Origin: an uncultured virus (IMG/VR IMGVR_UViG_3300031823_000005)
Taxonomy: Duplodnaviria > Heunggongvirae > Uroviricota > Caudoviricetes
Direction: 5' to 3' (one strand)
DNA length: 64,000 nucleotides
IMG/VR virus record: IMGVR_UViG_3300031823_000005
The position numbers were made by a program, and so were the translations under genes. Below, piece after piece: positions 2,803 through 44,220 of the stretch; the stretch's first letter is position 1, and the number at the start of each line of letters is the position of its first letter. Below the pieces are notes generated by a model. That model saw nothing but the letters and a program-made list of their open reading frames with translations, was not told where the DNA came from and did no database searches.

Positions 2803-3735
2803 ATGGGGAGCGGTCGTTTCGACAACGTATCATACACATCAGCACGCAACACCAGGGCGAGTAAAGGAGAAGATGATTTTCAATACTCCAAAACCTCAAC
2901 CATAGGCACAGGCGTTCACTCCAACCTCAATCCACGCCGGATCAAAACAAAACCGTTCAAGAAACTCGAAAGCCGGGACAGCGCCGAGCATCCAAAATCA
3001 AACGCCGTCTTCGTCTCCATCGACGTAACCGGATCGAACATTTCACGCGCACAGGAAGTCCAGAAAAAACTTCCCAACCTGATGGAAATGCTTCAGTCCT
3101 ACCTGAGCGATCCTCAACTTCTCATCGCCGCAAACGATGACTTTAACGTTGAAGGACGCCGATCAATCCAAATCTCTGACTTCGAGTCAGACAACCGGAT
3201 TGACGATCACATTCGAAATATCCTGCTCACCAGCAACGGCGGCGGGAACGACGGAGAGTCTTACGATCTGATTCTCTTGGCGGCAGCACACATGACCGTG
3301 CTCGATTGCCTGGAGAAACGCGGTCGAAAAGGCTACTTCTTCATGTACGCCGACGAACCAATTTTCTCCCATGTCAAAGCCGATGAAGTACGAGAAATTT
3401 TTGACATCGACACCGAGGGGCGCCTACCAGTCAGCGCCGTAATCGAAAAACTCAAAGAGCAGTACCACGTCTTTGTGATCTGGCCAATGGGCGGCTATCG
3501 ACACGCCCGCGAACAGTACGAACACCTATTTGGAAAAGAATGTGTTGTGCAACTCCAACAGCCGATACTTTTCTGCGAACTCATTGGTTCGCTCATCGGA
3601 ATCACCGAAAAGAAACTGAAGCCAACCAACGTCGTCAAAGATCTGGTCAAGGTTGGAACCAGTTCAAATGATGCCGACGAGGTTCTCAACGCGATCACTC
3701 CATACCTCAAACACCGGGAGGCTACCGGAGCGTGA
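2803..3735 (+). CDS. VWA-like (MIDAS) domain protein
   Basis: DVTGS MIDAS-like motif, GGGNDGESY motif, F-x-YADE; strong AGGAGG RBS. Confidence 0.7.
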   Translation: MGSGRFDNVSYTSARNTRASKGEDDFQYSKTSTIGTGVHSNLNPRRIKTKPFKKLESRDSAEHPKSNAVFVSIDVTGSNISRAQEVQKKLPNLMEMLQSYLSDPQLLIAANDDFNVEGRRSIQISDFESDNRIDDHIRNILLTSNGGGNDGESYDLILLAAAHMTVLDCLEKRGRKGYFFMYADEPIFSHVKADEVREIFDIDTEGRLPVSAVIEKLKEQYHVFVIWPMGGYRHAREQYEHLFGKECVVQLQQPILFCELIGSLIGITEKKLKPTNVVKDLVKVGTSSNDADEVLNAITPYLKHREATGA

Positions 3736-4892
3736 GAACAGCGCACATAGTGGCCGGCTTAGCGTATGGCGACGAAGGAAAAGGATCGACAGTAGATTTC
3801 TTAGTCCGCCAACGTCAGGCCGGCCTCGTTGTCCGTTACAACGGCGGAAGTCAGGCAGGACACAATGTTGTCCTGTCTGACGGCCGTCACCACTGTTTTG
3901 CTCAATTCGGCAGCGGGACATTCGTCCCTGGAGTCCGAACGCACCTCTCACGATTCATGCTGGTCAACCCTCTGAACATGAAATTGGAATATGAAGCCCT
4001 AAAAAACAATGGGATTTACGATGCTTACAATCGTCTTTCGATCGACGGCAAATGCCTGATCGTCACACCCTTCCACCGCGCCATCAACCGAATGATCGAA
4101 CAATTCCGCGGTAACGCTCACCACGGTAGTTGCGGCCAAGGGATAGGACAATGCCGTTTTGAACACCTGAAACACGGAGAGAAAGTTCTATTCGCTGAGG
4201 ACCTACTTGACGAAACCAAAACAAAAACAAAACTGAAATTTATCCTTTCGGAGATGAAAAAGACCTCTGACTTCATCACCAAGACAAACCCATTCATCCC
4301 GAAAGACGAATTTATCGAAGCCGGCAATGCCGCCATTGATCTCATCTGGAGCTTGTATAACGAATGGCCAGCCAAGATCGTGAAACCTACCCACCTCCAA
4401 TACCTCCTCAACCAAACAAACGATACAGTCTTCGAGGGAGCCCAAGGCGTCTTACTGGACGAACATCACGGATCGGCCCCTCACAACACCTGGACAAATA
4501 CCACTTTCGAAAACGCTTTAACTCTCCTCGGAGAGAACAATTTCGAAGGCGATATCCATAAAATTGGCGTGCTCCGAACTTACTTCACACGCCACGGCGC
4601 CGGCCCATTCAAAACAGAAGACGAATCTCTCAAACCTCTCCTCCCAGAGCCACACAACGACGATATTGGCTTTCAGGGAACCTTCCGCGTGGGATACATG
4701 GACTACACCGCCGTCAACTACGCTATAAAGGTCTGTAAGGGCGTCGACGGAATCGCGTTAAACCACCTCGACATCGTTGGAGCAACTGCCCAGGGGCGCA
4801 ACGTGAAGAAGATCGAGACCATCACCAACACCCCGGTTTGGATCGAAGGGTACGGTCCTACCGCCAACGATCGCCATTGGAGGAAGAAGTGA
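3732..4892 (+). CDS. purA: adenylosuccinate synthetase-like protein (divergent PurA family)
   Basis: GDEGKG, RYNGGSQAGH, FEGAQG and TRHGAGPF motifs; GTGA overlap with the VWA gene. Confidence 0.85.
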   Translation: MRTAHIVAGLAYGDEGKGSTVDFLVRQRQAGLVVRYNGGSQAGHNVVLSDGRHHCFAQFGSGTFVPGVRTHLSRFMLVNPLNMKLEYEALKNNGIYDAYNRLSIDGKCLIVTPFHRAINRMIEQFRGNAHHGSCGQGIGQCRFEHLKHGEKVLFAEDLLDETKTKTKLKFILSEMKKTSDFITKTNPFIPKDEFIEAGNAAIDLIWSLYNEWPAKIVKPTHLQYLLNQTNDTVFEGAQGVLLDEHHGSAPHNTWTNTTFENALTLLGENNFEGDIHKIGVLRTYFTRHGAGPFKTEDESLKPLLPEPHNDDIGFQGTFRVGYMDYTAVNYAIKVCKGVDGIALNHLDIVGATAQGRNVKKIETITNTPVWIEGYGPTANDRHWRKK

Positions 4893-5183: not shown

Positions 5184-5280
5184 GAAAACGCGGGAGTGAA
5201 GCCGGCACTGGTAACTGTCCACTAATAGCCACCGGGATTAAGTTCAATATGGATGCCCGCGATAAACCAAAGGAGGCTTC

Positions 5281-5631
5281 ATGGATATTGGATCACGACT
5301 GAGGCAACTCAGGGAAATGAAGAAGTTTTCCCAAGGGGAGGTTGAAAAACGAACCGGGCTCTTGCGTTGCTACACCTCGCGCGTAGAGAACGGACATACC
5401 ATCCCCGCGCTGGAAACCCTTCAGAAATACGCCAACGCCTTCGAAGTCCAGTTGTATCAACTCTTCATCGAAGACGGCGCCAAGGCCCAACCACTCATTC
5501 CACCTAACCCGAAGACACCACTCTCCAAACATCAACTGAACGTTCTGAAACAAATCGCCAGCTTCTTGCCAAAACTGGATGATCGCAGTATTAAACTCCT
5601 GCTTTCCACGGCAAAACAGATGACGAAGTAA
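5281..5631 (+). CDS. XRE-family HTH transcriptional regulator
   Basis: RLRQLRE..KFSQGEVEKRTGLLRCYTSRVENGHTIP HTH_3 signature; AGGAGG RBS. Confidence 0.9.
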   Translation: MDIGSRLRQLREMKKFSQGEVEKRTGLLRCYTSRVENGHTIPALETLQKYANAFEVQLYQLFIEDGAKAQPLIPPNPKTPLSKHQLNVLKQIASFLPKLDDRSIKLLLSTAKQMTK

Positions 5632-5667
5632 CCGGGCCAAATCCAAAACAAAGCGAGAAAAAAAAGA

Positions 5668-5919
5668 ATGTCACAAAAAGATATCGTTTCAACGTCAGAC
5701 ATGATGCGAGCCTTGGAAGATGAAATCGAACTCGTCAAAAGCGGAAAGATCACAGAAGCCGTAGGACGAGTCGTTTTCCGTGGCCGCGCACTTCAGATTC
5801 AAACCGCTTCCCTAAACCTCCAGTACAAACGGATGCTCCAGGGGAAGAAGCCAACCCAGGAAATGAAATTCATCGAAAACAAAGAACCGGACAAACCGGA
5901 AGAACCGAAAAAAGACTGA
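5668..5919 (+). CDS. small hypothetical protein directly upstream of array 1
   Basis: 83-aa ORF; its TGA stop abuts the first GCGGC of the array. Confidence 0.6.
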   Translation: MSQKDIVSTSDMMRALEDEIELVKSGKITEAVGRVVFRGRALQIQTASLNLQYKRMLQGKKPTQEMKFIENKEPDKPEEPKKD

Positions 5920-6673
5920 GCGGCGAACCACTACATGATCGGATTCGATTTGATAAGGTGACACAAAATGAAGCGGCGAGACGGTTCACAACAAAACAAA
6001 ACGACGCGGCTCAACTTGTCCCTTTTATCTCTCGACAATCCACGATCCAGCGGCGGCACATGCACAGGACAACACTCAGACGACGCGCGACAAGGCGGCG
6101 GCACATGCACAAGACAACGCGCGATGTGATGCGACAACGCCGCGACTTGACGCGGCGGCAAGACAGCGCAACACAGCTTCTTACTAAGCGGCGGGACTAT
6201 TCTTTACTGGATATGACTAGGCGGCAAGACAGAACAAAGCCGTGTGCAACGGGGCGGCGATCCGGAGCACCATCAACCGATACGAGACCACACAGAGCGG
6301 CCCGACATATTTCGACAGGACTATACGGCACATCACAGGACTAGGCGGCAAGACAACGTGGGACTGGACCAAACACAACTCGACTGGACGCAGCGGCATG
6401 ATTCGACCGCCACACGAACGCGATTGCACTCGGCGCAGCGGCATGACCGGGCGAGGTGACACCTTACGGTACGGCACGAGACTACGCGGCAAGCCCAGAC
6501 ACTACGTAGCGGCTCGACCTCTCAGATCAAGACCGTTTTTGACCTGACAGGGCGGCATAACCTGATAGCACTTGATCTCTACAGGGCGGCGGGATTAGTC
6601 CAATCATGCACCCTAGCGGCAGGCCCAGACGCTACTTAACATCACATCACCAGACTTAGCGGCAAAACTGAAC
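5920..6673 (+). repeat. pentamer-module array 1 (putative guide-RNA array): 19 GCGGC delimiters separating runs of NN-(G/C/A/T)AY pentamers
   Basis: GCGGC at 5920, 5973, 6006, 6050, 6095, 6155, 6188, 6221, 6254, 6297, 6345, 6393, 6438, 6486, 6509, 6552, 6586, 6616, 6659; 12 of 18 spacings are 5n+3; example GCGGC-AAGAC-AACGT-GGGAC-TGGAC-CAAAC-ACAAC-TCGAC-TGGAC-GCA-GCGGC. Confidence 0.9.
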
Positions 6674-6719
6674 ACATGAAGTAGAAATAAAAATCTAAAA
6701 AGAAAAGAGAACAAAAACC

Positions 6720-7577
6720 ATGGCTGTAAAAGAATTAAAGTTTCAGGACCTACGAAGTATTTATGATTCAATGACCTCAAGTATTCGTTGCGACTGTGTT
6801 GTTTCCACTAAACTTGTCGGTGGACTCCCCGCAGATCGTAAAGCTCTCACCGCTTTTGCAGAGCACCATTTAAAAATCACTGATCCAATTGAACGAGAAG
6901 CCGCTGTAAATCGAATCCTCCGCGAAGAAATTGGCGAAAAAGACGTCACTCCGGAAACCGGTGAAATTAAAGAAAAAACGGTTTATGGAGTCAACGTAGT
7001 GCGGCATGACGAACATGGCCGACCATTTCTAGGAAATTGGATGGTGAAAGCATGTTTAAAACAAGCAGCCAGCCGCGTTGGGCTCTTCACCGAAACCAGA
7101 GGCACCAAGGGAAACATGAGCGAAGCCGGCAGCGTAAGCGCGATCGGCCAGAGCCTCCTCGATCCGGAGCACCCGGAAATCATCTACCTCATCAACAAAG
7201 ACGGATCCGGACCTGCCAAGACCTACTTTGAAGAATTTATGGGGCGGGTTCAAAGTCCGCAAGGACCTGTCTCAATCATCCACCACTCGGAATGCGTGGA
7301 ACCGGGCTCGAGATTTTCTTTCGAGTTTCAGTTTCTCCGCGGAGGGCTGGATGAAGATGCCATCGAGAAAACCGCAGCCATGGCCATGATTTGTGGACTC
7401 GGAAGTATTCGATCGTTGGAGTGTGGCAAGTTTCGTATCGAACGTTGTGTTGTCGATCTAAAGGAAAAAGCGAAGAAGCCTGAAAAACCACCAAAGGAAA
7501 AGAAGGACGCCGCTAAAACAGAGGCTCCTCCTATGACCCCTGGTGAAAACATGCAAGCTTCGCCTATTCGTCACTGA
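6720..7577 (+). CDS. solitary RAMP / Cas7-like RNA-binding protein
   Basis: RAMP hallmarks: N-terminal strand plus LVGGLP, GRPFLGNWMVKACLKQAA (equivalent to G.P.I.GS.lKG.lR), ECVEPGSRFSFEF, C-terminal Gly-rich loop CGLGSIRSLECGKF. Confidence 0.8.
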   Translation: MAVKELKFQDLRSIYDSMTSSIRCDCVVSTKLVGGLPADRKALTAFAEHHLKITDPIEREAAVNRILREEIGEKDVTPETGEIKEKTVYGVNVVRHDEHGRPFLGNWMVKACLKQAASRVGLFTETRGTKGNMSEAGSVSAIGQSLLDPEHPEIIYLINKDGSGPAKTYFEEFMGRVQSPQGPVSIIHHSECVEPGSRFSFEFQFLRGGLDEDAIEKTAAMAMICGLGSIRSLECGKFRIERCVVDLKEKAKKPEKPPKEKKDAAKTEAPPMTPGENMQASPIRH

Positions 7578-8612
7578 GCGGCGAAACACTGCGCGATATT
7601 CACAAAAACACGACGTAGCGGCTTGACTTGACTTGCTTGTACTGAACGACACAAAACAAAACGATTACAAAGCGGCATGACTCGATCAATTCCGTTACGA
7701 CATCACTGCAACCGGACATAGCGGCTGGCCCACACTACACCCGGCATAGACAGGGTACGACTTAGCGGCACGGCTGAACAAAATTAAATTAGACGCGATC
7801 CCACATGGCGGCATAACTAGACAGGATCGTATCGAACACTATTCAGCGGCCCCATATGACCCGCTTACGATTCGGCATGACAAGACGGAGCGGCTTGACA
7901 CAACGGGACTTTACTTGGCGGCAAAACCTCACCTCACAGAGCCTCGCAAAATGGAGCGGCACGATTTGATTTCGCGTCGCGAGATTTGACAGTACGGGAC
8001 TCAGCGGCAACACATCACAAGATGACCATCAGACGAGACCAGACAAGGCGGCGTGACATCACGCGACTACTTGCGACTAGACGTAGCGGCTGGACTGGAC
8101 GAATCTTCTTCAGACGCGACAAACACCGAGCGGCTGCACATGGCACGGCAGGATTGGATCCGATAACACTCGATTGAGCGGCACAGTTCAATCAAACTGA
8201 ACAGAACAGAGCGGCGCAATCAGATTGGACCAAATCTGAACGGAGCGGCAGAATGTAGCCCCACAAGTCCCCACGAAGCGGCATAACTCAATGAAACGTA
8301 GCGGCATGACGAAATGAAACCTGACGTGGAAAAACTAATACATTGCGGCATGACGCGGTTCAGTACCTTGAAACTCAATCTAACGTGGCGGCGTAACAAG
8401 ACGGGACATAACATGATCGAGCGGCGGGACTGGTCGTAACTGCACACCGTCAGAGCGGCGGGACTGAAACGTGATTGGACACCGCTGCACGCTGCGGCGA
8501 GATCAGACGGGACATAACTTAACCGAATTCAGCGGCACGACTCCATTTGTCAGTACGGCACTTGGCGTAACTTAACGTGGCGGCAAAAAGAAACTAGACG
8601 CAGCGGCAAGAC
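7578..8612 (+). repeat. pentamer-module array 2 (putative guide-RNA array): 27 GCGGC delimiters
   Basis: GCGGC at 7578, 7618, 7672, 7721, 7765, 7808, 7846, 7890, 7918, 7956, 8004, 8048, 8086, 8130, 8178, 8211, 8245, 8278, 8301, 8345, 8388, 8421, 8455, 8494, 8532, 8580, 8603; 15 of 26 spacings are 5n+3 and 10 are 5n+4. Confidence 0.9.
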
Positions 8613-8618
8613 GGAGCC

Positions 8619-9620
8619 TTGGACGACCATTGGAACCGAATCAAAACCGATTACATGGCACCGCGGTTCAAGGATGGGGACTTCGCCGGGGGGATGATTG
8701 CCACACTCAATCAACTTTCAAGCCGGCTAGCAGCCTCCAAAGACGAAGGATTGCACCCTAAAACCACTACCAATATCACACAGGAGGCTCCTACGGACCT
8801 TTCTTGGGTTTGGGGGCTTCTGATATTCGGAACCCTGATTCTCGGGATCTGGGCGATCTGGAAGCTGTTTGTCTCTAAAACGGCCAAAAAGGAAAAAATC
8901 TCCACATCGCAATCCAACGCCATATCCCAGAGAAACCAAGCCGCTCAAAAGCTTCGAAAGCTTCAGAGCGATATCGAAGACGTAAAAGCAACCAATACAC
9001 AAACAGACAGAGATATCGCTATAATCCAAGCCACTGTGGATTCAGCAAGCGAAGTATTCTCTGACCTTTCGAAATCAATTAAAGGAGATCCCAATACTCC
9101 TAATCTTCTTTTTTGGGAATACGACAACATAGCTGGACAGTACCAAACCGTTTGCGCCCAACTCGACCAAGCCAGCAAAGAACTCTACTTACTCACACAT
9201 CCATTCACAAACCCAGGATCTCAGGCGCAGGCGCAACCTGGAACCGCTGGAATTTCTTCCGGATCCACACAAAACCAAATTAAGCACAAAAGACATGTTT
9301 CAAGATCAAGAGATCGGGACGTCGCCAGATCTACAGGGGTAAACAATACTGTGATTACTGGTGGAGGCTTCCCTGTTCCTGTTTTCATTCCAGAACCGGA
9401 ACCAATTTACGAAGCTCCCACTCCAACACGCGATCCGGACCCAACCCCTGAACCAGATCCAGAACCTTCCGGAGGATCCTCAGACTACGGTAGCGGTGGG
9501 GGAGATTCCGGTGGCGACTCGAGCGGCGGCGGTAGTAGTGATTTCGGAGGAGGAGATTCAGGAGGGGGTGACTCAGGAGGAGGTGGCGGAGATTCTGGCG
9601 GCGGTAGCAGTGATTTCTAA
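8619..9620 (+). pseudogene. 5'-truncated TPM (DUF477)-domain membrane protein with Gly/Ser/Asp-rich tail
   Basis: Begins with the TPM C-terminal helix motif (MAPRFKDGDFAGGM), then a TM helix and GGGDSGGG tail; no signal peptide or TPM core; in-frame TAG at 8595 lies inside the array. It may still be translated. Confidence 0.55.
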
Positions 9621-9646: not shown

Positions 9647-10306
9647 ATGGCAACATTTTTACAAAAAGTACGACTCGTAACACTCGGCAGCGTCCATGAT
9701 CTTCTGGACAAAGCCATCGACGCAAACTCTCCAAGTGCTTTGCGTCAATACGTTCGAGACCTGGAAGACGCACTCGACCGTATGAAGACCGAAGCAGCAG
9801 TACAGGCCGGCCAAGTTCGCACTTTGTTCCGTGAACAAGCAGACCTGGAAAGCCGTATCGAAACAACCAAGGCAACTGCCAAAAAGCTCGTGGACAGCGG
9901 ACATCCGGACCTCGCGCGTCCAAAGGCCACGGATATCCTTCGGATGCAAGAAGAATTGAAATGTACATCCGCAAACCTCGTAACCCAACAAGAGACCTCA
10001 AAGAAGATCGATATCGCGGTTGGTCAGCTTGAGTCCAAACACGAACAGATCGTCTTTCGCGTACGTGAACTGGAACGCCTCGATCGTGACAGTAAAGCCA
10101 AAGAAGCGGCGGCAACATCCCTGGCAGCGGCCGGCAGGCTCATCGGTGGAGGTACGGACATCTCCATTGACGACATCCAAAGCAAAATGCTGTCCAGAAA
10201 CGATGCCGCCTCAGAAAAGTTCGATCGAGCAGTTGGCGACGTCAAACAACCAATCGATCCAGAGCAGGAAGCTAAGGTTGACGATCTGCTAGCTTCGCTG
10301 AAATAA
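9647..10306 (+). CDS. PspA/IM30-family coiled-coil protein
   Basis: HDLLDKAID..SP.ALRQYVRDLED motif, long coiled coil, VDDLLASLK end; AAGGAG RBS. Confidence 0.8.
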   Translation: MATFLQKVRLVTLGSVHDLLDKAIDANSPSALRQYVRDLEDALDRMKTEAAVQAGQVRTLFREQADLESRIETTKATAKKLVDSGHPDLARPKATDILRMQEELKCTSANLVTQQETSKKIDIAVGQLESKHEQIVFRVRELERLDRDSKAKEAAATSLAAAGRLIGGGTDISIDDIQSKMLSRNDAASEKFDRAVGDVKQPIDPEQEAKVDDLLASLK

Positions 10307-10500: not shown

Positions 10501-10736
10501 AAATCAAATATCAAACACAAACAGTCAGACAAGTGGAGTACTGCTGTAAGGATATGGAACAAGCAGAAACAGGAAAAGCGATCGTATTTCCAATTGAACC
10601 AACCAGAGAACTATCAACACCGTGGATATTTGGACCTCACAATTCCAAACTAGGCGGCGCTGGCAGGCCATTCGCAATAAAATTTTGTCCGTTTTGCGGG
10701 GAACGCATCACGTTTAGTCAGGAAATTAAACAATGA
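10497..10736 (+). CDS. small Cys-rich phage protein
   Basis: YCC...FCPFCG motifs. Confidence 0.6.
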   Translation: MKIKYQTQTVRQVEYCCKDMEQAETGKAIVFPIEPTRELSTPWIFGPHNSKLGGAGRPFAIKFCPFCGERITFSQEIKQ

Positions 10737-11173
10737 ACCGTATTTTCGTGGATATGGACGGAGTGATCGTAGATTTCGATTCCTACAAAGACAAACACGC
10801 ACTAACAGGGGAAGATACGAAACGCCGGCAGGGAGCTTACTTGGAAATGGAACCGATCCCAGGCGCACTCGAGGCTGTCCACAGTCTCATTGGTATGGGA
10901 TTCGAAGTTTGGATAGCTACAAAACCACCAACAGGAGTAGTGTTCGCGTACGCCGACAAAGCAGCATGGGTTATCAAACACCTTCCAGAACTCAAACGCC
11001 GGATCATTATCACACACGACAAAGGGTTACTTGGAGAAGAAGGAGACTTTCTAATTGACGATCGTCCCCACAAAGCAAACTGTGAAAAATTTCATGGGAC
11101 ACTTCTTCACTTTAGTAAAAACATGCAATGGCCCGAGATGCTAAATTTCTTTAGAAAAATAAAACGTATTTGA
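10733..11173 (+). CDS. HAD-family 5'(3')-deoxyribonucleotidase (NT5C-like)
   Basis: IFVDMDGVIVDF motif I, LIDDRP motif IV. Confidence 0.85.
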   Translation: MNRIFVDMDGVIVDFDSYKDKHALTGEDTKRRQGAYLEMEPIPGALEAVHSLIGMGFEVWIATKPPTGVVFAYADKAAWVIKHLPELKRRIIITHDKGLLGEEGDFLIDDRPHKANCEKFHGTLLHFSKNMQWPEMLNFFRKIKRI

Positions 11174-35103: not shown

Positions 35104-38100
35104 TTATTGAGGCAACGGCTCGAACTGAAATTTCTCGGCCGGTGGAGTCTCGAAATCAACGTCTCGATGGTGTTTTCTTGGTTTAGTAATCGTCACTTTC
35201 TGATATGGATCGACCTGCCTTGCAGCGAAGCCGGCACCAGGAGTAAAACTTCCAAAGAAATCAAACGCCCAAGACTTCCATTCATCTTCCTTGGCGGTGC
35301 CATTCAACGTCTTACGAATTAAATCTATCGTATCGGCAGCAAACATGATCGGAGGAGATAACAACCTGCCCATATGAAAGGGCCAAAAACGACTAAAAAG
35401 CGGACCGCCGATACCGGCCGCTACTGCTGCCGCCCCTGCTAATGAAACCAGAATTCTTCTGTATTTAGCAACAGCATCTATGTACTCATAGTTCCCTTTA
35501 GATACCTGTTCCTGAATGTACGCTTCAGGATCCGGATGATCCTTAACTTCTTTAGCGACTTTTCGGATCGTTGAAACGAACTCAGCTTCGCGGAACAAGA
35601 AATGTTTGAACATTCCGAGAACCGGATGCTCACGTTGCCACATCTGAACATGTCCAGGTGTGTAAAGAAATTCGCTACGTGCCATAACACTGCTGGCGTA
35701 ATCAAAAGCTTTCTCTGTATCCACACCATTTGCCGCTAACTCGTTCAAACGCTTCCAGGTAATCTCACCAACAGCTTCTTTCGGGCCAAGGAAACCCATA
35801 TCTTTTGCTTTTTCTAATGCCGCAAGATACGACACACTACGATCGATGAAATCACTCATCGACGTCGTAAGCCGCAACCAACCCTGTGGTCTCTTTTTCA
35901 ATTCATAAAAAGTTTCAGGGAATGCCCAAAGCCGATCCATCAACAAACCAGAACGTGCAACGAGCTCTCGGCCTTCGTCCGTCATCATTCGTGAGTATCC
36001 TTTTCTCAAATACTCACCACCATTTTTCCCAAGTTCAGGCAAGGTATTGATCGGGACTTTGGTCAAATGCATGGTGTACCAAAGCGGATTCAATTCAAGA
36101 GCCGAAGCATACGTTAAATTCGTGATCGTTCTGGCAATGTTAAAGCGAGCCCGATCCATACGCTTGTATTCACTCGGAACACCAAAAAAGATTCGCGCGT
36201 ACTTTGTCGAATATTCTTTCAGCATTGAATCCGGGATCTCTGCTAGATTCCGTGCTACCTGCCTCGAGAGTTTTGTGTAGTGTTTTACTCGCAACATGCT
36301 CGGCAAATAGGCTTCCAAAACATCATCGATATCCCAGGTCTTTGGAGGCTCACCGCGACGCCGCAAAGTATGAGGAGAAAAAGGATCCCGCGTCATTGAT
36401 CTACGAACATCCAAACTAAATTGAGAAATCAAATCGGCAGGAACCTTGCCATTCAACTCTGGATACAGCGACGAAACCATGTCTTCCATGGTCTTGATAA
36501 CAGCCGAATACTTCCGGCGATATCCAACTTCAGGACGAACATTTCTGACAGCTTCAATCACTGGCTCATAAATCATGTCCCGAAGCTTTTGTGCAGCGGC
36601 CAACTCATTCTCTTTGAATAGGCTTCCATCAAGCCACTTCGACGGTTGTCCCAACAGAGACATCATCGACGTTCCCTGGTCAGTCATACGAAGGGCTTGA
36701 TCAACTTTACGTCGACCAATTGGATCGTTGATCAGATCATATTCCTGCAAGATCTTAGTTTTTTCGTACTGCATATTCCCAAGATCCCGCTTATAAACCT
36801 GTTCCGCGTGAGTGATACTGTCGACCATCTTCTTGGTTTCTGGAAACTGTCGTAAAACGTACGGCGCGGTGTGCATTTGAGCAAGCCAAGAACGAACTCC
36901 GACTTCCGCTTTTGCAAGACGATCGATCATCCCAATTGGGACGCCCCACTCCCCAAAATGCTTTTCAGCAAACTCGTAAACACGTTGCATAACTTTCGGT
37001 GCTGCAAGGTCATCACGACGAACTTCAGAATCACCCGGCCGTTGGACCTGCTGCGTGCCGTACACCTCGCCTGGAGGCACTGGTGGCCTTTCCCCACCAC
37101 CTTCAAGACCCATAGTGGCCATATTTTCATCGTTAACCTGATCCAGTAACCGAGGATCCGAAATTTCTCGTTCTGTCTGCTCAGGAACAAATGGTCGACG
37201 CAATACCGAAGCCGACTTCTCGTCATTTTCCACAAACGCTTCGTCTGGACTCGGAAGATCTGGAGGCAGGGATGGAATATCTTCCTCTTGGTGAAGCTTT
37301 ACAGGACCCATAGAAGGCGGTTCATCCAGTGGCCGGCGCCGTTCTACCTGCATACCTTTATTTTTGGCAGTCTCAGCAGAAGAAACAGGAGCTTCTTTGT
37401 AAGAAGAAACAGCCGACGTCTGAAGAGTGTTCATAAACTGATCGAACCCAATAGTCGTATCGTTTCCAAACTCATACGCAAGATAAGCGTCAAGATCTTT
37501 CATCGCACCGACAATTGGATCTGATTTTTTAATCCCACTTACCGAGGCTTTCAAAGATTCAAATCTAGGAAGAACTTTTTGGAAAATCAGCTTCATTTCC
37601 GGCTGTGCGTTACTGGTCAAAAAGTAGGCGTTTACGTTTGATTTGGTTCCGAATCGCCATGGTCTTCCGATAGCTTGATCGAACATGACACCTGACCACG
37701 GAGGTCCGAGATAAATAACCGCTCTAGGAGCTTCACCGGACAGGTCGTGGAGACTAACTCCGACGCCTCCTGCTCCATACGTCGCAATGAGATGTTTTTT
37801 ACCCCCACGGTTAAATTCATCAAGGTCTGATTGTCGCCTAGCAGAATGGGCGCCCGTAAAATCCGCAAGGTCTTCACCGAAAGCCTCCTTCAGTGTGTCA
37901 ACGACAGACGGTAGCTTTGGAAGCTTTTCGGAAATCGCACCATCAAAAGCTTCATCGGCAGGCTTCAGGAAATCATAAATTTCGTTGACTTCTTTTTTGC
38001 TTTCCGTGAAATAAATCACCTTCCATCCTTCACGGTCCAACTTTTTACCTAGCTCAATTGCTTCTGGGAGTCGTTGACGTTCCAAGAAAGACTTCATGAA

Positions 38101-41100
38101 CGTCGCAGCATTCCCACGAACTGCCATGATCATTTTCTGCAATCCTTTTTGACGGAAATATTCCTCCGCCAAACGGAATGCTTGTGTTGCATTTCTTACA
38201 CCCTCCATTGTTTGCTGTGTCATCGGAACAACAGAAAAATTAGCCGTGTATCCTTCCATATTGCGATCGAGATTTACGAACATCCCTCGATTAATCAATT
38301 CATCGCGCAACGCAGCAAGTTTCCGGTAATTCATCGGAACTACCCACTTGCCACCTTCACCTTGCCGCACACCAAATTCTTTTGCTAACCAGGGCTCGAG
38401 CCCGGTTTTCTTCCAGAGACCAAGTTTTCCAAGATATCCAACTTCCAGTGGAGTATGGAAAGCAGTTGCCGAAGCATACACAACATCAGTCGAATGATTT
38501 GCAGCTTCAATCAAAAACTTCCCGCGCTGATTCGATGGATCATGCCACCGACGAGCATAATGCGACTCATCAGCAATTAGCATGTCCCAATTGATTTTGT
38601 CTAATCCTTCACGATTTGATGCCGTAGAGTAAGTGACTGTATAAATTCCAGGCTCAGTCGGAAGAGTCTTCTCCAATGGCTTAACTTCAACACTAAAAAG
38701 TTGCGCCGTATCAGCCCACTGTTTTGCAATATTCTGACTCGGTGCCACAATCAACGCCATCCGCGGCCGCTTCTCCGCAAGAATCGCGGAACCCATATAG
38801 GTTTTGCCGGTCCCGGTCGACGTTGCTAGTACTGCTCCGTGGTATTTTCTGAGCGAAGTGAGAACGGTTTGAACAATCTCTGGCTGCCCTTTGAACGCAA
38901 GCTTGGCCTCAACTTGGGGCGAGAGGGTCTCCGTGGGCGGCGGGAGATTCTCCGGGAGTTTCGCATCTTTCAACCTACCTTTCCATTCGGTCGGTTCAAC
39001 CGTATATGGGATATCCGTAATGTGATCAACGTCTAGCTTGGGGGTTTGGACAGCCCGTAACGGCTGCTCAAATCGCTCGACAACTCCTGATCCTCCAACT
39101 CCCTCTCCAGTAGGTCTAACTGCTCGTCCGGAGGCTGGTTTTCCAATTCCACGCTCGGATCCGGTGGCTTCTCTAGGATCTTGTCTAACTGCCTCACGTC
39201 TTTCAGGCCGAGTGCTAACATCAACTTTTTCTCGAGGTGGGACGCTTGGCGGTCTTTCCTCTCTTGCTTGTGATGGGCCACGCCGTACCTCCTCTACTCC
39301 TGGTGGAAGAACAATTTGTCTAACAGGCTCAAACAGATTTCGTTGATCAGGCGTCTTTGCCTCAATCTTGCCGCGATTGAGCATATGATCATAAGCGTGT
39401 TGCAAAATTGGACGGACAGTCTCACCAAACTCAGATACAAGCTTCCTGGACAAAGAAGCGAATTCACGCATCCCGCCTTCGAAGTAGTAGCCCATGATCT
39501 CGGAAACATCACGGACTAGTTCCGGATCGACGCCGGAATGCAAGGTTGTACCGAGTCTTTTACGAAGCCGTTCACGCGCGGACTCAGCACGCGCCTTCGT
39601 AAAAATAGCGTTATTGTCGCCAAATCCCTTCTCAGGACGATCAAGAATCTTCCGACGTTCCATTTCATCCCGGAATGGCTTGTACTGCGCCTCAAGCTGT
39701 TCCCTGGCAGGAGGTGTAATTCCAGACCGTCTCATTTGAGACTCAATGGATTTTGCGGCCGTACGAACATCATCGTCAGTCATTCCACGGAGCGATTCCC
39801 CTAAAGACTTACGCGGAGGTTTATCAATAGGTTCGTATCTCTTTTTAGGACCCGGCTCTGGAATTTCAATCTCTCGTTTTTTTTGCTCTACTTTCGGTTC
39901 TCCGAGAAGCTTGGATACCGCATCGATGTTTTTCTTAGTAGATTCAATTTCTTCAGCGATTCTTTCTTTGGCAACAACAACAGGATCCGCTTCAGGATTC
40001 TCTTCTTTCAGGACTTCTAAATCATCGGTGCCGGCATAAACTTCTTGAACACCTTCAAGCCCTTTCTCATTAACAACCCTCAAAGCATCTTCATAAGCCT
40101 CAAGCTCTCCCTCGAGGCGCTTCTTTCCAACTTCAAGTTTTGGACGATCGGCTGCCTTGACATCAGGAGGAAGATCTAACGGTCTTGGTTTTACCTTCGA
40201 AGACAAATCTGGAGGAGGAGTTAAAATACGATCGAAAACCTTCTTGATTTCCGGAGAAAACTTCATGCTCAACGGACTATCTTTTAGAACCCTATAAATC
40301 CCAGACATCCATTCCTTGAACTTGTCAAAAATTCCACGCAACCCCTCATGTGGAGTTTCACCATCGCGTAGATACCGTTCAAATCCACGCGCAAATTTCT
40401 CTTCCGCTTTAACTGGCCATACCGCTCCATACTCAGGATCGTATTTCACCCCGGCCCAATCATGCAGGGCCATCCACTCTTTATTTGACAACTCTTTCCC
40501 GAGATCCCTACGGAAAATATGAGCTAATTCATGTACCAAAGCTGCAACAGAAGGATTGTTTTTTTGGAAAGCACGGATGATCGTACGACCATCATCCATA
40601 AACTCAACATGAGCTTTTACCCTGGTTTTTCTGATCGAAAGTTTTTGCTCACCAACACGAACCAAATCCTGATCTTCACCAGACGCTTGATGTCCTTCTA
40701 CAGAAAGCTTCTTTTCCTCAATCCATTTATCAAGAGGCTTTCCAACTGTTCGCGCACGCGCCTCCATGATGCCCATCACTGCATCCATCTGTTCCGAAGA
40801 TATATCCGGAAACGCTGCTTCAGCTTGCATTCGGAATACAGCAGACGGAGATCCAGCCAATTCTGGAGGCGTACCAATCTCACCAAGATCAATACGCTCT
40901 TCAGGCTCTTCGGTTTTCCGACGAGCTACTTCTTCATCAAAAATTTCACCGATCGATGGAGGAGGTTCAATGGGTGCCGGCGCCAAAACTTCATCTTCCC
41001 TCTCGGAAGCAGCGCCGGCATCTTGTGGGGTACTGCCCTTCGCAGTGCTACTGATTGGCCTTAATGTACCCCAATCCTGGGGCTTAACGTCAACACCAAA

Positions 41101-44100
41101 ATTTCCTTCAAAGCTTTCCCATGGCTTCGGAGGTGCGTAAAAAGACATGGTGCCTTGACCTTTAACATCAGCCTCAGCATCTTGCGCGTACCCTTCAAAC
41201 GCTTTCTTTACGGCCGCGCTGTCCTCATCAAGTTTGGTTGCGATTCCCTCTACGATCGGATGAATCGGCTCGCGCGGGAACATAAACGCTGTTGGCGGAT
41301 CAATATGATCAGCGATCGACACCCCGGCTGAAGTTGCTGCAATATGCTCGCGTAAAGCTTCTTTCACATAATCTGTGATGTCCCAAGCGCCACCACGAGC
41401 TTTGATTCTGGCAATCGAAGACAGCGATCGTTCAATCTTACGAAGGATACCTTTCGGCGCATTCGCCAAAACCAACGGATCATCCACCACAGAACCAAGA
41501 ATTGCGTTCTCAACAAAATCTTTGCCGGCGTCGTTCAACCCCTGTGTTTTTTCATCAATGAACTGACGACGTTCCGTCGACGCAATCACACCATCTGCCT
41601 CGAGCTTTTCGAGGATCCCGCGCGGCCGCTCACGAAGAAGATCTCGTAACGTGGCACCATCGCCTAATTCCTGCAATTGGTTAAGAATGTAGTCGAGGGT
41701 CTCCGGACTCAACCGCTTGCCGGCAGAAACCGCCTGTTCAAACTCACTAAGCTTCCGGGTAAAAACCTTGTTCAGGTCCGAACCAAGCGCACGAAGCCCT
41801 TGGATATCAGTCGGCGGCGCCAAAAATTCACGCACCAAAACCGGCTCTTTCATTCCCTCAATTTTGGCCGGATCTAAACCGAATCGGGATGCACGTTCAA
41901 GGAGCGATTTTCGATAATCATCACCGCCTCCCTCACGGTAAAGCCGTACTGTAGACATCGCACGGCTATTCCCACCCAACACAATTCCGTCAGGCGTGAC
42001 CATAGGAGGACCGTGCTCTGGGCCAGGGGCGTCGGAAAGGGTGAATTCCGGGTCATATCGTTGGGTGTGCTGGATAACGGCAACCTGGGCGTCTTTGTCA
42101 TTTTTATAGTCGCGCTCCTGTACGCCGGAAGGATACCCCTCAACCGGCTCAAAATTCACAGGATCATGCGACGGAATGAGCCCCGCACCCTCCACAACCC
42201 TATACCTGATAGGGTAGTTCCTCGCTACTGTCTTCAATTCACTAGACTTACCTGTGGGCCCCTCGACTTTAACACCGGCCTTAACCGTGGCCGGCTTCCG
42301 CCTGTTTTCCATCGCCTCCGCGATACGGTCCAACGCCAAATCGCCGGCAAGCTGCCGATTCGCTTCCTGTTGCTGCTCGATCAGGGCAATCTCATCAGGA
42401 CGCGCATGGGCCTTCCGAAGCTCCAACTCCTGATTAATCCACGCCGCGGCCGTAACCTTGGTTTGGATCTCCTCGCGGGTCTGTGGAGGGGGTGCCAGTG
42501 GCGCAGGCGCGGCTGGCGGTGGGGCTTCAGTACCCGGGGTGGGTGAAAGTGCCTGTGGCTCTACAGGAATGCCTGTACGAGGCTCCGGAAGCGGTTCCAT
42601 GGCAAACCGGCGCTTATCCTCAACCTTTAAATCCTCCCCGGTTCGAAGCCTTTCCTCACGTTCCGCAGCGAGCTCGTCCGTATACCTTTTCCGACGCTCC
42701 TCGAGCCATTCCGCCTCCCGGTCCTCGCGCGTCATCGGCCCCCGGCCGGGAAGGACTTCCAAAGGATCCATGGCGCCAAACGGCCGTTTTTCCGGGATCG
42801 GCATCTCTATTGCTGAAGGTCCCTGCATCGGCCGCTGAAGCCCGGTAGTTGATGTCTTGAACCGTTCCTTCTCTGCCGTAATGTCTTTCTCTAACTGCTT
42901 TTCACGCTCATCCAACTCCGCTAGCAGTTGACGCTTTTCCGCTTCGGTCTTCGCCTGCTCAGTCGCCAACCGGCGCTTGTGCGCCAATTCGCGCTGTTCC
43001 TGTTCGATCTTGCCAATCTTTCTCTGTGCCTCTGTCTTCAGGTTCTCCCGTTCCAACCTGTTTTGCAGGTTACGATCGCCAACTCGAAGCGCATCCACAT
43101 CCGGCATCGGAATATCCATTGGAACCGGTCGGCCAATCCCAAACATCGGCAACCCATTGGCTATCCGATACTGCATATCCTCGATCCCTTTTGCAGTGAT
43201 CGGCAGAACAGAATCCGGCTTCGTAGCCTGAGCCGCTTGCAGTTCTTTTTTCTTTTGCTCAAGCTCGTCATACGCCTTCTTACGAATCTGTTCCTGAGTA
43301 ATTCCTTTCTCGTTTGTGACGTGATGAATTACCGGCATCAAAAGCATTGCTGCCGAACCACCATAGGCCGACATCGCCTCAAAATAACGCCCCTCTTTCC
43401 AAAGTTTGTTACCTTCCTGAAGAGAGTCGTAAGAAAACTTCGCGCCGATAGCTTGATTCACCGCATACAAAGCCGTACGTGCAGCTTTCTGAGCTTTAGA
43501 AAGCTCACCAAGCATTTCCAAGGGCTTGAAAATTGCCCCCATAGACTCCCAATCAAACGCTGTCGTTCCAATAGTCCGCGCGACAACGCCGGGATCTGTC
43601 AGGCTCACACCTTCCTGTGCTTCCTTTTTTGAAAGATCGAGCAGTTTGTCCTGCCCCATCCGAAGCATACTTTCGATGGTCTTTTTCTTTTCAGGATCAC
43701 TCTTAACGCTAGGCTCATTTAGAGCCCCTTGCAGAAGCTTTACCGTGCTCTGCAAATCCTCAGATTCAGTTGGGAAAACTTTCTCTGAAACCCACTCCGC
43801 ACCTTTATGTCCACGGCTAAGAACATGCTCGATAAAATTGAATGGATGATGCGCCGGATCAATCCCTTGGAGTGTGCTCTTCCAAACATCATGGATCCGA
43901 GGATCATCGGGCTTAACTGAAATCCCAAAACGATCGTACAGATCACGAGACATATCCTCGTTGGACACGGCGCCGCGTTCGCCCCACTTTCCAAGTGGAC
44001 GAGTGTAAAAAGGAACTTCCTTGTACTCCGCTGGCTTTTGTGGATTTTTCTTCGCAGTCAGAAAATGATCAAACGAAGCAAAGTCAGTGAATCCGCCACC

Positions 44101-44220
44101 ACCCTGCTTCTTTTGTTCTGGCTGCGCTTGTTGCTTGTCAGGAGAAACCGCTGGCTTCTGCTTTAAAAACTTGTCAAGGTCATCGAATGACCCAAATCCC
44201 GGCTGCTGTCCGTCTGCCAT
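35104..44220 (-). CDS. giant polyvalent (DarB-like) virion/ejection protein: DdrB-like ParB, zincin-like and strawberry-notch SF2 helicase domains
   Basis: LIPSHDP...QERDY...GNSR; HELAH and EEKFARGFERYL; TGTGKT, DESH, SAT, GGVGVSLHD, QAIGRPWR. Confidence 0.8.
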   Translation of the reverse strand: MADGQQPGFGSFDDLDKFLKQKPAVSPDKQQAQPEQKKQGGGGFTDFASFDHFLTAKKNPQKPAEYKEVPFYTRPLGKWGERGAVSNEDMSRDLYDRFGISVKPDDPRIHDVWKSTLQGIDPAHHPFNFIEHVLSRGHKGAEWVSEKVFPTESEDLQSTVKLLQGALNEPSVKSDPEKKKTIESMLRMGQDKLLDLSKKEAQEGVSLTDPGVVARTIGTTAFDWESMGAIFKPLEMLGELSKAQKAARTALYAVNQAIGAKFSYDSLQEGNKLWKEGRYFEAMSAYGGSAAMLLMPVIHHVTNEKGITQEQIRKKAYDELEQKKKELQAAQATKPDSVLPITAKGIEDMQYRIANGLPMFGIGRPVPMDIPMPDVDALRVGDRNLQNRLERENLKTEAQRKIGKIEQEQRELAHKRRLATEQAKTEAEKRQLLAELDEREKQLEKDITAEKERFKTSTTGLQRPMQGPSAIEMPIPEKRPFGAMDPLEVLPGRGPMTREDREAEWLEERRKRYTDELAAEREERLRTGEDLKVEDKRRFAMEPLPEPRTGIPVEPQALSPTPGTEAPPPAAPAPLAPPPQTREEIQTKVTAAAWINQELELRKAHARPDEIALIEQQQEANRQLAGDLALDRIAEAMENRRKPATVKAGVKVEGPTGKSSELKTVARNYPIRYRVVEGAGLIPSHDPVNFEPVEGYPSGVQERDYKNDKDAQVAVIQHTQRYDPEFTLSDAPGPEHGPPMVTPDGIVLGGNSRAMSTVRLYREGGGDDYRKSLLERASRFGLDPAKIEGMKEPVLVREFLAPPTDIQGLRALGSDLNKVFTRKLSEFEQAVSAGKRLSPETLDYILNQLQELGDGATLRDLLRERPRGILEKLEADGVIASTERRQFIDEKTQGLNDAGKDFVENAILGSVVDDPLVLANAPKGILRKIERSLSSIARIKARGGAWDITDYVKEALREHIAATSAGVSIADHIDPPTAFMFPREPIHPIVEGIATKLDEDSAAVKKAFEGYAQDAEADVKGQGTMSFYAPPKPWESFEGNFGVDVKPQDWGTLRPISSTAKGSTPQDAGAASEREDEVLAPAPIEPPPSIGEIFDEEVARRKTEEPEERIDLGEIGTPPELAGSPSAVFRMQAEAAFPDISSEQMDAVMGIMEARARTVGKPLDKWIEEKKLSVEGHQASGEDQDLVRVGEQKLSIRKTRVKAHVEFMDDGRTIIRAFQKNNPSVAALVHELAHIFRRDLGKELSNKEWMALHDWAGVKYDPEYGAVWPVKAEEKFARGFERYLRDGETPHEGLRGIFDKFKEWMSGIYRVLKDSPLSMKFSPEIKKVFDRILTPPPDLSSKVKPRPLDLPPDVKAADRPKLEVGKKRLEGELEAYEDALRVVNEKGLEGVQEVYAGTDDLEVLKEENPEADPVVVAKERIAEEIESTKKNIDAVSKLLGEPKVEQKKREIEIPEPGPKKRYEPIDKPPRKSLGESLRGMTDDDVRTAAKSIESQMRRSGITPPAREQLEAQYKPFRDEMERRKILDRPEKGFGDNNAIFTKARAESARERLRKRLGTTLHSGVDPELVRDVSEIMGYYFEGGMREFASLSRKLVSEFGETVRPILQHAYDHMLNRGKIEAKTPDQRNLFEPVRQIVLPPGVEEVRRGPSQAREERPPSVPPREKVDVSTRPERREAVRQDPREATGSERGIGKPASGRAVRPTGEGVGGSGVVERFEQPLRAVQTPKLDVDHITDIPYTVEPTEWKGRLKDAKLPENLPPPTETLSPQVEAKLAFKGQPEIVQTVLTSLRKYHGAVLATSTGTGKTYMGSAILAEKRPRMALIVAPSQNIAKQWADTAQLFSVEVKPLEKTLPTEPGIYTVTYSTASNREGLDKINWDMLIADESHYARRWHDPSNQRGKFLIEAANHSTDVVYASATAFHTPLEVGYLGKLGLWKKTGLEPWLAKEFGVRQGEGGKWVVPMNYRKLAALRDELINRGMFVNLDRNMEGYTANFSVVPMTQQTMEGVRNATQAFRLAEEYFRQKGLQKMIMAVRGNAATFMKSFLERQRLPEAIELGKKLDREGWKVIYFTESKKEVNEIYDFLKPADEAFDGAISEKLPKLPSVVDTLKEAFGEDLADFTGAHSARRQSDLDEFNRGGKKHLIATYGAGGVGVSLHDLSGEAPRAVIYLGPPWSGVMFDQAIGRPWRFGTKSNVNAYFLTSNAQPEMKLIFQKVLPRFESLKASVSGIKKSDPIVGAMKDLDAYLAYEFGNDTTIGFDQFMNTLQTSAVSSYKEAPVSSAETAKNKGMQVERRRPLDEPPSMGPVKLHQEEDIPSLPPDLPSPDEAFVENDEKSASVLRRPFVPEQTEREISDPRLLDQVNDENMATMGLEGGGERPPVPPGEVYGTQQVQRPGDSEVRRDDLAAPKVMQRVYEFAEKHFGEWGVPIGMIDRLAKAEVGVRSWLAQMHTAPYVLRQFPETKKMVDSITHAEQVYKRDLGNMQYEKTKILQEYDLINDPIGRRKVDQALRMTDQGTSMMSLLGQPSKWLDGSLFKENELAAAQKLRDMIYEPVIEAVRNVRPEVGYRRKYSAVIKTMEDMVSSLYPELNGKVPADLISQFSLDVRRSMTRDPFSPHTLRRRGEPPKTWDIDDVLEAYLPSMLRVKHYTKLSRQVARNLAEIPDSMLKEYSTKYARIFFGVPSEYKRMDRARFNIARTITNLTYASALELNPLWYTMHLTKVPINTLPELGKNGGEYLRKGYSRMMTDEGRELVARSGLLMDRLWAFPETFYELKKRPQGWLRLTTSMSDFIDRSVSYLAALEKAKDMGFLGPKEAVGEITWKRLNELAANGVDTEKAFDYASSVMARSEFLYTPGHVQMWQREHPVLGMFKHFLFREAEFVSTIRKVAKEVKDHPDPEAYIQEQVSKGNYEYIDAVAKYRRILVSLAGAAAVAAGIGGPLFSRFWPFHMGRLLSPPIMFAADTIDLIRKTLNGTAKEDEWKSWAFDFFGSFTPGAGFAARQVDPYQKVTITKPRKHHRDVDFETPPAEKFQFEPLPQ

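Follow-up and report, generated by a model that had tools for sequence, protein, structure and literature searches.

A single gene between two periodic arrays

We analyzed a stretch of 64,000 nucleotides from an uncultured virus (Caudoviricetes; IMG/VR record IMGVR_UViG_3300031823_000005), hereafter the window, in which a 285-codon gene on the plus strand (6720..7577) is framed by two non-coding arrays of short repeats. Array 1 (5920..6700) and array 2 (7578..8640), both on the plus strand, are marked by the pentanucleotide GCGGC, which occurs 22 times in the region 5900-6700 (19 times if three GCGGCGGC doublets are merged) and 27 times in the region 7570-8640, delimiting 18 and 26 units, respectively. 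In the rest of the window, GCGGC is found 0-8 times and GCCGC 0-9 times per kb; an excess of GCGGC at 25-26 kb belongs to coding sequence rather than to an array. As detailed below, the locus is very probably a VIPR (Viral Interference Programmable Repeat) system of an uncultured soil phage, of a non-canonical type that we denote (G)AY after its constant triplet (Y, pyrimidine). VIPR was described in 2026 as a gene silencer that is guided by RNA and related to CRISPR (clustered regularly interspaced short palindromic repeats); according to that report, the loci are phage-borne and comprise one Cas7-like protein, Vipr, often an accessory vap gene, and guide RNAs, the vrRNAs, that consist of GGY/NN pentamers, where NN is a variable dinucleotide (bioRxiv 10.64898/2026.04.26.720920).

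When phased on GCGGC, each unit consists of the delimiter, a run of pentamers of the form NN-x-A-Y, and a closing NN-A that leads into the next GCGGC. In the register of the literature, a unit is written GGC-NN-(xAY-NN)n-AGC, so that k + 1 triplets enclose k dinucleotides, and adjacent units meet at A(80%)-G-C directly abutting GGC, with no NN between them. An earlier reading based on the letters alone (the sequence-only reading) had parsed this boundary in the same manner, as two triplets, xGC-GGC, without a dinucleotide. With the three doublets merged, 12 of the 18 spacings in array 1 are of the form 5n + 3, and each of these in-phase units holds 4-10 NN pairs; in array 2, 15 of the 26 spacings are 5n + 3, 10 are 5n + 4, with one additional base within the unit, and one is 5n. 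The sequence-only reading had given the same proportions. Our recount is identical for array 2 and, for array 1, differs in individual values (47, 45, and 57 versus 44, 45, and 60) depending on which member of a doublet is counted; the dinucleotides listed for the units at 5920, 6345, 6438, and 8130 were reproduced letter for letter. The autocorrelations of GAC, RAY (R, purine), and AC peak at lags of 5, 10, and 15 nt and, across the delimiters with their 8-nt junction, at lags of 13, 18, 23, and 28 nt. At lag 5, GAC exceeds the expectation 2.8-fold in array 1 and 5.1-fold in array 2, and neither the intervening gene nor the flanks with their genes displayed a 5-nt autocorrelation. At Rfam gathering thresholds, neither a hammerhead or other ribozyme nor any other Rfam family was found in the window, and a scan for sigma-70 promoters and terminators on the plus strand from 5200 to 9000 returned nothing. 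Among sequencing runs, two DNA runs of soil metagenomes contain the stretch or a part of it, and no RNA run is listed with the region.

For comparison, 13 non-redundant related loci were collected from viral and metagenome contigs, giving 14 sources together with the window; the metagenome scan yielded 7 loci, which do not include the relatives of the window protein that are 76-82% identical to it (P0005-P0008). The homologue of the gene at 6720..7577 is the only gene common to 13 of the 14 sources (the copy in locus L016 is below the cut-off for open reading frames, ORFs). In 11 of the 13 related loci, a 5-nt-periodic array with the same GCGGC junction and xAY triplets is present on the strand of this gene, upstream of it, downstream of it, or on both sides; the loci lacking an array are L009 and the 1.5-kb fragment L016. 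Information content was determined for 748 internal pentamers from 128 in-phase units of 12 sources, namely, the window and the 11 related loci with arrays. The variable pair carries practically none (N1, 0.03 bit; N2, 0.00 bit), whereas the triplet rises from 0.19 bit at T1 (G, 48%) to 1.07 bit at T2 (A, 81%) and 1.16 bit at T3 (C, 77%; T, 22%). The values for the 164 pentamers of the window are similar, with 0.06, 0.01, 0.16, 0.94, and 1.14 bit from N1 to T3, and agree with the sequence-only reading, which had described position 5 as C/T, position 4 as A, position 3 as biased to G, and positions 1-2 as free. The most common internal triplets among the 748 are GAC (230), AAC (105), CAC (82), GAT (75), and TAC (55), and GGC accounts for 29.

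The content of the arrays is exceedingly labile. Between the loci L014 and L015, identity amounts to 90.4% and 94.1% in the two flanks, up to the first and from the last GCGGC, and the enclosed arrays, with 10 and 7 units, cannot be aligned; thus, positions 1-2 are far more variable among relatives than positions 4-5, the opposite of what the sequence-only reading had named as its second refuting condition. Near-identical units recur inside single arrays (L002, 2606-2730 as well as 2568 and 2849; L006, 2115 and 2219 as well as 2795 and 2848), which suggests that units spread by duplication or by recombination at the junction and that their NN positions diverge thereafter. In array 1, the three GCGGCGGC double junctions (6050-6160) flank two out-of-phase units, at 6053 and 6098, that begin alike with ACATGCACA(G/A)GACAAC and in which the triplets deviate from xAY; this shared start looks like a local duplication. 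The final unit before the next gene often starts with GCGGC-AAAAC (or AAAAA) and then enters the ribosome-binding site (6659-6720 and 8580-8618 in the window; L002, 2958; L004, 4677; L007, 2921) and may represent a conserved array end. In L008 (1045-1222), GCGGC recurs at intervals of 9 and 3 nt upstream of the homologue; this series differs from the pentamer arrays and may represent a repeat within coding sequence.

The short repeats are dense, strand-asymmetric, and intergenic, and genes for replication proteins (DnaB and RecA) are nearby. The arrays might therefore act as DNA rather than as RNA, namely, as origin iterons or as a packaging or partition site, bound by a phage protein at the GCGGC or GAC repeats. 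GTC, the complement of GAC, is the recognition site of T7-type primases. However, the arrays are linked to the Cas7-like gene, the only gene common to the loci, and not to replication or packaging genes; they are always on the strand of this gene, be it upstream, downstream, or on both sides; and they turn over completely between relatives that are 90-94% identical, although DNA-binding sites would be expected to be conserved. We accord this explanation next to no probability.

A Cas7-like protein related to Vipr

The product of the gene between the arrays (285 aa; P0001) belongs to a family with about 160 representatives at the 50% identity level, none of which has a name. The protein had no match to a Pfam or PHROG family, a profile of 34 sequences produced 0 matches against PDB sequences, and a blastn search with the region 5600-8700 found no match among 50,697 phage records. 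The structure was more informative. An AlphaFold2 model based on the 34-sequence alignment (mean pLDDT, 88.7) gave 145 matches at E<=0.001 in a Foldseek search of the PDB (E 1.8e-7 for the Cas7/Csm3 fold), and the matches listed are chains of CRISPR effector complexes, mostly Csm (type III-A), but also Cmr, type VII, and type IV-B. An independent, all-against-representatives comparison with VIA-align placed the protein beside the Csm3, Cmr4, Csf2, and gRAMP chains with Z scores of 10.0-8.8. Therefore, the gene encodes a lone Cas7-like RAMP (repeat-associated mysterious protein), with a C-terminal glycine-rich loop, GLGSIRSLECGKF. A protein of 1687 aa that emerged as a weak match (P0206) was considered as a possible Cas7-11 and ruled out, being an Ig-domain protein.

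A Cas7 fold next to an array whose content is hypervariable among relatives also brings to mind CRISPR-Cas in a degenerate or miniature form, similar to type III or IV, in which GCGGC would be the minimal repeat and the units would be acquired spacers. Unit lengths that step by a fixed increment over an 8-nt constant part are in line with this possibility, and type III CRISPR RNAs show comparable fixed length increments. None of the hallmarks of class 1 CRISPR-Cas, that is, repeats of 25-40 nt, acquired spacers, and other cas genes, was recognized, however: the window contains no CRISPR-like tandem repeat of 25-40 nt, and no cas family was matched among the 42 ORFs of the window scanned against Pfam, so that the locus is minimal and stands away from CRISPR-Cas. 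Moreover, an internal 5-nt periodicity cannot come from spacers copied off foreign DNA, and the period is 5 nt compared with 6 nt in class 1 complexes. We consider a miniature CRISPR-Cas system extremely improbable.

For the connection to Vipr itself, a broad profile of 40 sequences, including the most distant relatives of the window protein, was set against one built from 26 sequences of the Vipr family of Escherichia phage SUSP1. The two were aligned by hhalign with a probability of 95.5% (E 1.6e-8; 138 columns; 18% identity), and the alignment spans helix-1, the thumb region, and the G-loop, in which GLGSIRS..GKF lies opposite GVGDWRP.FGRF; the N-terminal 94 residues of the window protein are outside of it. 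Thus, the protein combines the traits of a Vipr, namely, a RAMP with a single RRM (RNA recognition motif), a thumb, a G-loop, and Vipr homology, and hereafter we refer to the gene as vipr.

The structure of SUSP1 Vipr (PDB 36pp, identified by sequence match) makes it possible to read this alignment at the level of single residues. In the SUSP1 complex, as reported, one Vipr protomer is bound per repeat and the constant triplet is sequestered, with G1 contacted by H17 and D177, G2 by R138 and W178, and Y3 by R179 together with other residues (10.64898/2026.04.26.720927). R138 aligns with E191, which is nearly invariant in the family of the window protein, D177 with S229, which is invariant, and W178 with I230, which is variable, whereas R179 is kept as R231. 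Hence, the residues that read the guanines would be altered, with a reversal of charge at the G2 contact, and the arginine that holds the pyrimidine would be retained. These changes fit a triplet turned from GGY into (G)-A-Y, and the altered contact residues may well be what reads the switch.

Probable guide units and their candidate targets

In the published systems, NN pairs with DNA under a 1-nt skip rule, the skipped base being mostly a codon wobble position, with competing satellites, prophage regulators, and further VIPR systems reported as targets (10.64898/2026.04.26.720920); a satellite recombinase and the vipr genes of relatives were added later (bioRxiv 10.64898/2026.10.15.759431). 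The sequence-only reading had proposed that the triplets bind protein while the NN pairs specify the target, which coincides with the mechanism described in those first reports (10.64898/2026.04.26.720920 and.720927). The arrays of the window have the corresponding make-up, that is, same-strand tandem pentamers with a constant triplet and hypervariable NN, and we scanned viral contigs for exact matches to four units (8130, 6616, 5920, and 6345) and two controls.

The clearest result was obtained for unit 8130 (8130..8182, plus strand; 9 NN pairs). Its antisense NNx reading, CAxGAxTTxGGxCAxCTxGTxATxCA, encodes HELGHLVMH, the HExxH zinc site of the ImmA/IrrE (Peptidase_M78) regulators. The 18 specified bases had 12 exact matches in viral contigs, and since a 16-base pattern gave 17, about one match would be expected by chance under uniform composition. 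In 11 of these 12 matches, HELGHLVMH is encoded on the opposite strand, in frame, and the skipped base is the wobble position, as anticipated by the sequence-only reading with its 2-match/1-skip rule. The four of these 11 genes that were checked all encode Peptidase_M78 proteins (IrrE/ImmA), three of them with an N-terminal HTH_3 domain. In 596 Gb of bacterial genomes, the unit had at least 120 matches, compared with about 17 expected under uniform composition; among the 120 matches listed, 84 read HELGHLVMH, although the pattern allows 64 different readings, and the 99 HELGHLVM matches represent 89 distinct DNA sequences. In these 99 matches, the skipped bases follow codon degeneracy and not the guide triplets or T1, which lends no support to the alternative NNN/AY code that the sequence-only reading had entertained. 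The window itself harbors no Peptidase_M78-type target gene and no match to unit 8130 of 14 or more of the 18 bases.

Unit 6616 (6616..6663, plus strand; 8 NN pairs) has candidate targets in vipr genes. Its antisense NNx reading, AAxTGxATxATxAAxGCxTGxCT, encodes NWMIKACL, the helix-1 motif that is the most conserved one of this Vipr family, and 15 of its 16 bases match the vipr genes of L013 and L016, compared with 14 of 16 for the vipr gene of the window (NWMVKACL; the differences are the Val and a TTA Leu codon). All eight residues are compatible with the unit in P0006 (81% identical), P0007 (76%), P0021, and P0024, whereas shuffled units reach at most six. Across the 14 vipr genes, the best score observed with a 1-nt skip was attained by only 1 of 300 shuffles of the NN order, compared with 125 of 300 without a skip and 75 of 300 with a 2-nt skip; among the gap models considered in the sequence-only reading, the 1-nt skip is thus the only one to exceed the shuffled controls. 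When 102 units were searched against 143 kb (the window and the loci) with a skip of 1, 46 of the 102 real units and 110 of 306 shuffled ones reached a score of 0.85, and unit 6616 was the sole standout.

The other two units were less telling. The NNx reading of unit 5920 (5920..5977, plus strand; 10 NN pairs) specifies [DE]T[IM]RS[FL][KN][DE][KN][DE], and viral contigs contain two exact matches of 20 of 20 bases. Each is in frame and in sense orientation; one lies in a gene for a DUF927 helicase (L035) and the other in a gene for a large serine recombinase (L036). The controls, with the order of the dinucleotides reversed or with a 2-nt skip, gave 0 matches each. The matches of units 8130, 6616, and 5920 are in line with an NNx code, on either strand, with the skip mostly at the wobble position.

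The arrays might nevertheless be a protein-binding RNA scaffold or sponge that has no guide function, with the RAMP coating the xAY triplets and NN serving as unconstrained spacers, in the manner of TRAP with its (G/U)AG-NN sites or CsrB with its GGA sites. Information content close to 0 bits at NN is equally predicted for neutral spacers, targets were sought for four units and are clear for one or two, and the RNA is unstructured: the folding of array 1 showed no excess of structure over shuffled sequences (z +1.23), which is also what would be expected of a single strand wrapped by protein. Neutral spacers, however, would not spell a conserved protein motif as unit 8130 does, in 11 of 12 viral matches and, through many distinct DNA sequences, in the majority of the genomic matches listed, nor would they favor the 1-nt skip over the shuffles on vipr genes. 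In addition, the protein family is homologous, by profile, to Vipr, the guide function of which was shown experimentally according to 10.64898/2026.04.26.720920. Altogether, a scaffold or sponge is an unlikely explanation, although it deserves slightly more credit than the two considered above, and we prefer the assignment to VIPR.

Several observations weigh against this assignment. A tblastn search with the window protein found no match among the 50,697 phage records, the 34-sequence profile was aligned to the single SUSP1 protein with an hhalign probability of 2%, and the link to Vipr requires broad profiles on both sides, with just the C-terminal 60% of the sequence covered. The pentamers lack the canonical GGY triplet, T2 being A in 81% of them, and GGC serves as the constant triplet only at the start of each unit; this excludes the canonical subtype but not the VIPR family, because related consensus sequences are allowed for and GAC/NN has been reported. 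Specifically, the authors of 10.64898/2026.04.26.720920 list NNNGG, YNNNG, and NNNNG as variants beside the canonical YNNGG, and in a separate survey 21 of 99 period-5 clusters had non-canonical triplets, such as GAC/NN and CAC/NN, with Vipr-like folds adjacent (bioRxiv 10.64898/2026.10.21.760802). Altogether, 17 of the 44 units are out of phase, mostly by + 1 base (6 of 18 in array 1 and 11 of 26 in array 2); internal degeneracy of vrRNAs is described as frequent by the VIPR authors (10.64898/2026.04.26.720920). The invariant 3' tail or pseudoknot of type II vrRNAs is not found in the arrays, the units of which abut via AGC|GGC, and a structured tail is presented as a trait of type II rather than of all VIPR systems (10.64898/2026.04.26.720920). 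No conserved accessory (vap) gene was detected among the 14 sources.

The target data contain further difficulties. The scans of viral contigs encompassed just the four units. The 17 exact viral-contig matches of unit 6616 include none in a vipr gene and look like chance matches, and the match of this unit to the vipr gene of the window (87.5%) exceeds the 80% threshold at which the VIPR authors report no self-targeting (10.64898/2026.04.26.720920); it could reflect autoregulation or a narrow margin between self and non-self. The two genes matched by unit 5920 are unrelated to each other, and no other unit of the window converges on the L035 and L036 records, so that these targets are merely suggestive. 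The 12 viral-contig matches of unit 6345 (18 bases) collapse to four distinct sequences without a common gene, which makes this unit uninformative.

Working model, gene neighborhood, and relation to known systems

The data are compatible with the following scheme. The gene 6720-7577 would encode Vipr and the two flanking arrays about 44 short vrRNA guide units, probably transcribed with the operon, as the neighboring genes are all on the plus strand. By analogy to the SUSP1 complex, Vipr protomers would polymerize along the RNA, one per pentamer, presumably forming a filament in which each constant triplet is sequestered and the two variable bases are presented. The NN pairs would then bind double-stranded DNA with every third base skipped (NNx). 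Read in this way, a guide addresses the first two bases of successive codons, and therefore synonymous changes in the target would be tolerated. Binding would presumably silence transcription of the target. The AGC|GGC junction, with its two triplets and no NN, is the sole candidate signal for where a guide stops and its successor begins. The targets are likely to be genes of competing mobile elements, namely, HTH (helix-turn-helix)-Peptidase_M78 (ImmA/IrrE) regulators of the lysis-lysogeny decision and rival vipr genes, with satellite-type helicases or recombinases possibly among them.

A more far-reaching reading is that the locus represents an orthogonal branch of VIPR that is defined jointly by three properties, a possibility that we rate somewhat below an even chance. 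First, (G)AY specificity would be set by the replacement of the thumb Arg by Glu and of Asp-Trp in the G-loop by Ser-x. Second, the units would be short and tail-less; because they would be delimited by the missing-NN junction alone, one phage can carry about 44 guides. Third, some guides would be aimed at an invariant protein motif (HExxH; helix-1 of Vipr) rather than at a single rival. If so, one guide could silence an entire family of genes in many different hosts and elements, and the vipr gene of the phage itself would be spared through two substitutions.

Nearly all experiments on VIPR have dealt with two GGY-type systems, that of SUSP1 and that of a Pseudomonas fulva prophage. By its sequence alone, the present locus shows that the NNx code extends to a (G)AY-type system, names a class of natural targets, the HTH-Peptidase_M78 lysis-lysogeny regulators, which are matched at their catalytic motif, and points to residues that may set the triplet specificity of Vipr. 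The latter proposal can be tested and would yield an orthogonal protein-guide pair for multiplexed silencing. The guide arrays are also compact, with 8 constant nucleotides per guide. The many short, tail-less guides, the identifiable natural targets, and the hypothesis on specificity residues are useful additions to the previous work on VIPR.

The neighborhood of the locus offers one possible accessory gene, a small ORF (83 aa; P0002; 5668..5919, plus strand) directly 5' of array 1. Homologues at the same position are present in L001 and L005 only, that is, in 3 of the 14 sources including the window, and the product has no Pfam or PHROG match, no family in an Atlas look-up, and no recognizable fold. 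The HTH_3 gene at 5281-5631 is not conserved with vipr. Further upstream, an adenylosuccinate-synthetase homologue (3732-4892, plus strand; Pfam E 4.6e-60) matches phrog_1211, annotated as '2-aminooxy adenylosuccinate synthetase' (PurZ-like), and judging from this similarity the phage DNA may contain 2-aminoadenine in place of adenine; such DNA could alter how the phage genome is read by the RNA-guided systems of rivals. An NT5C-like nucleotidase is encoded at 10733-11173. A gene of the PspA/IM30 family (9647-10306, plus strand; E 8.2e-16) is situated just 3' of both array 2 and a 333-aa ORF whose match to the TPM domain is weak. A 3038-aa ORF on the minus strand (35104-44220) combines a ddrB-like ParB domain with a ResIII/Helicase_C helicase and is situated in the block of virion genes, beside SU10-type adaptor genes (51363-53080). 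The RecA of the window is less than 60% identical to those of phages of many hosts.

Among the known systems, the locus most resembles in its architecture the type II VIPR of SUSP1 (KT454805.2): both have a lone Cas7-like RAMP gene with same-strand pentamer-repeat RNAs on both sides, hypervariable NN, and an NNx code in which the wobble position is skipped. The targets in SUSP1 and the candidate targets in the window belong to competing mobile elements, vipr genes of rivals among them. The differences are considerable, too. In the SUSP1 locus (sequence of KT454805.2), NN alternates with GGT/GGC triplets and a conserved tail comes after them, whereas the triplet is (G)AY in the window; Vipr is 195 aa long in SUSP1 and 285 aa here; and the four vrRNAs of SUSP1, with 9-16 repeats and a pseudoknot tail cap each, contrast with the window, in which about 44 units, each holding 4-10 NN pairs, adjoin one another via AGC|GGC. 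Unlike in SUSP1, no vap1 homologue adjoins vipr. With the class 1 CRISPR Cas7 backbone proteins (Csm3/Cmr4/Csf2), the protein shares the RRM core, the thumb, and the glycine-rich loop as well as the allotment of one protomer per fixed guide step; however, each step covers 5 nt, of which 3 are hidden, compared with 6 nt and 1 hidden base in class 1 Cas7. CRISPR repeats and further Cas proteins are absent, and the guides are not acquired spacers.

The closest parallels to the triplet are the GAC/NN and CAC/NN arrays, which likewise have a period of 5 and a fixed trinucleotide beside a Vipr-like fold (10.64898/2026.10.21.760802); the motifs reported there repeat 10 times, and the text of that report, as far as available, does not include targets, unit boundaries, or an explanation at the level of residues. 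The AGC|GGC junction may be the counterpart of the published staggered vrRNA arrays, which have 1-nt overlaps according to the legend of fig. S18 in 10.64898/2026.04.26.720920, the main text of which does not mention GCGGC. The gapped dinucleotide code put forward in the sequence-only reading is correct but not new, having been in print since April 2026. Thus, the locus is a new member of VIPR, of the GAC/NN sort that is already in print.

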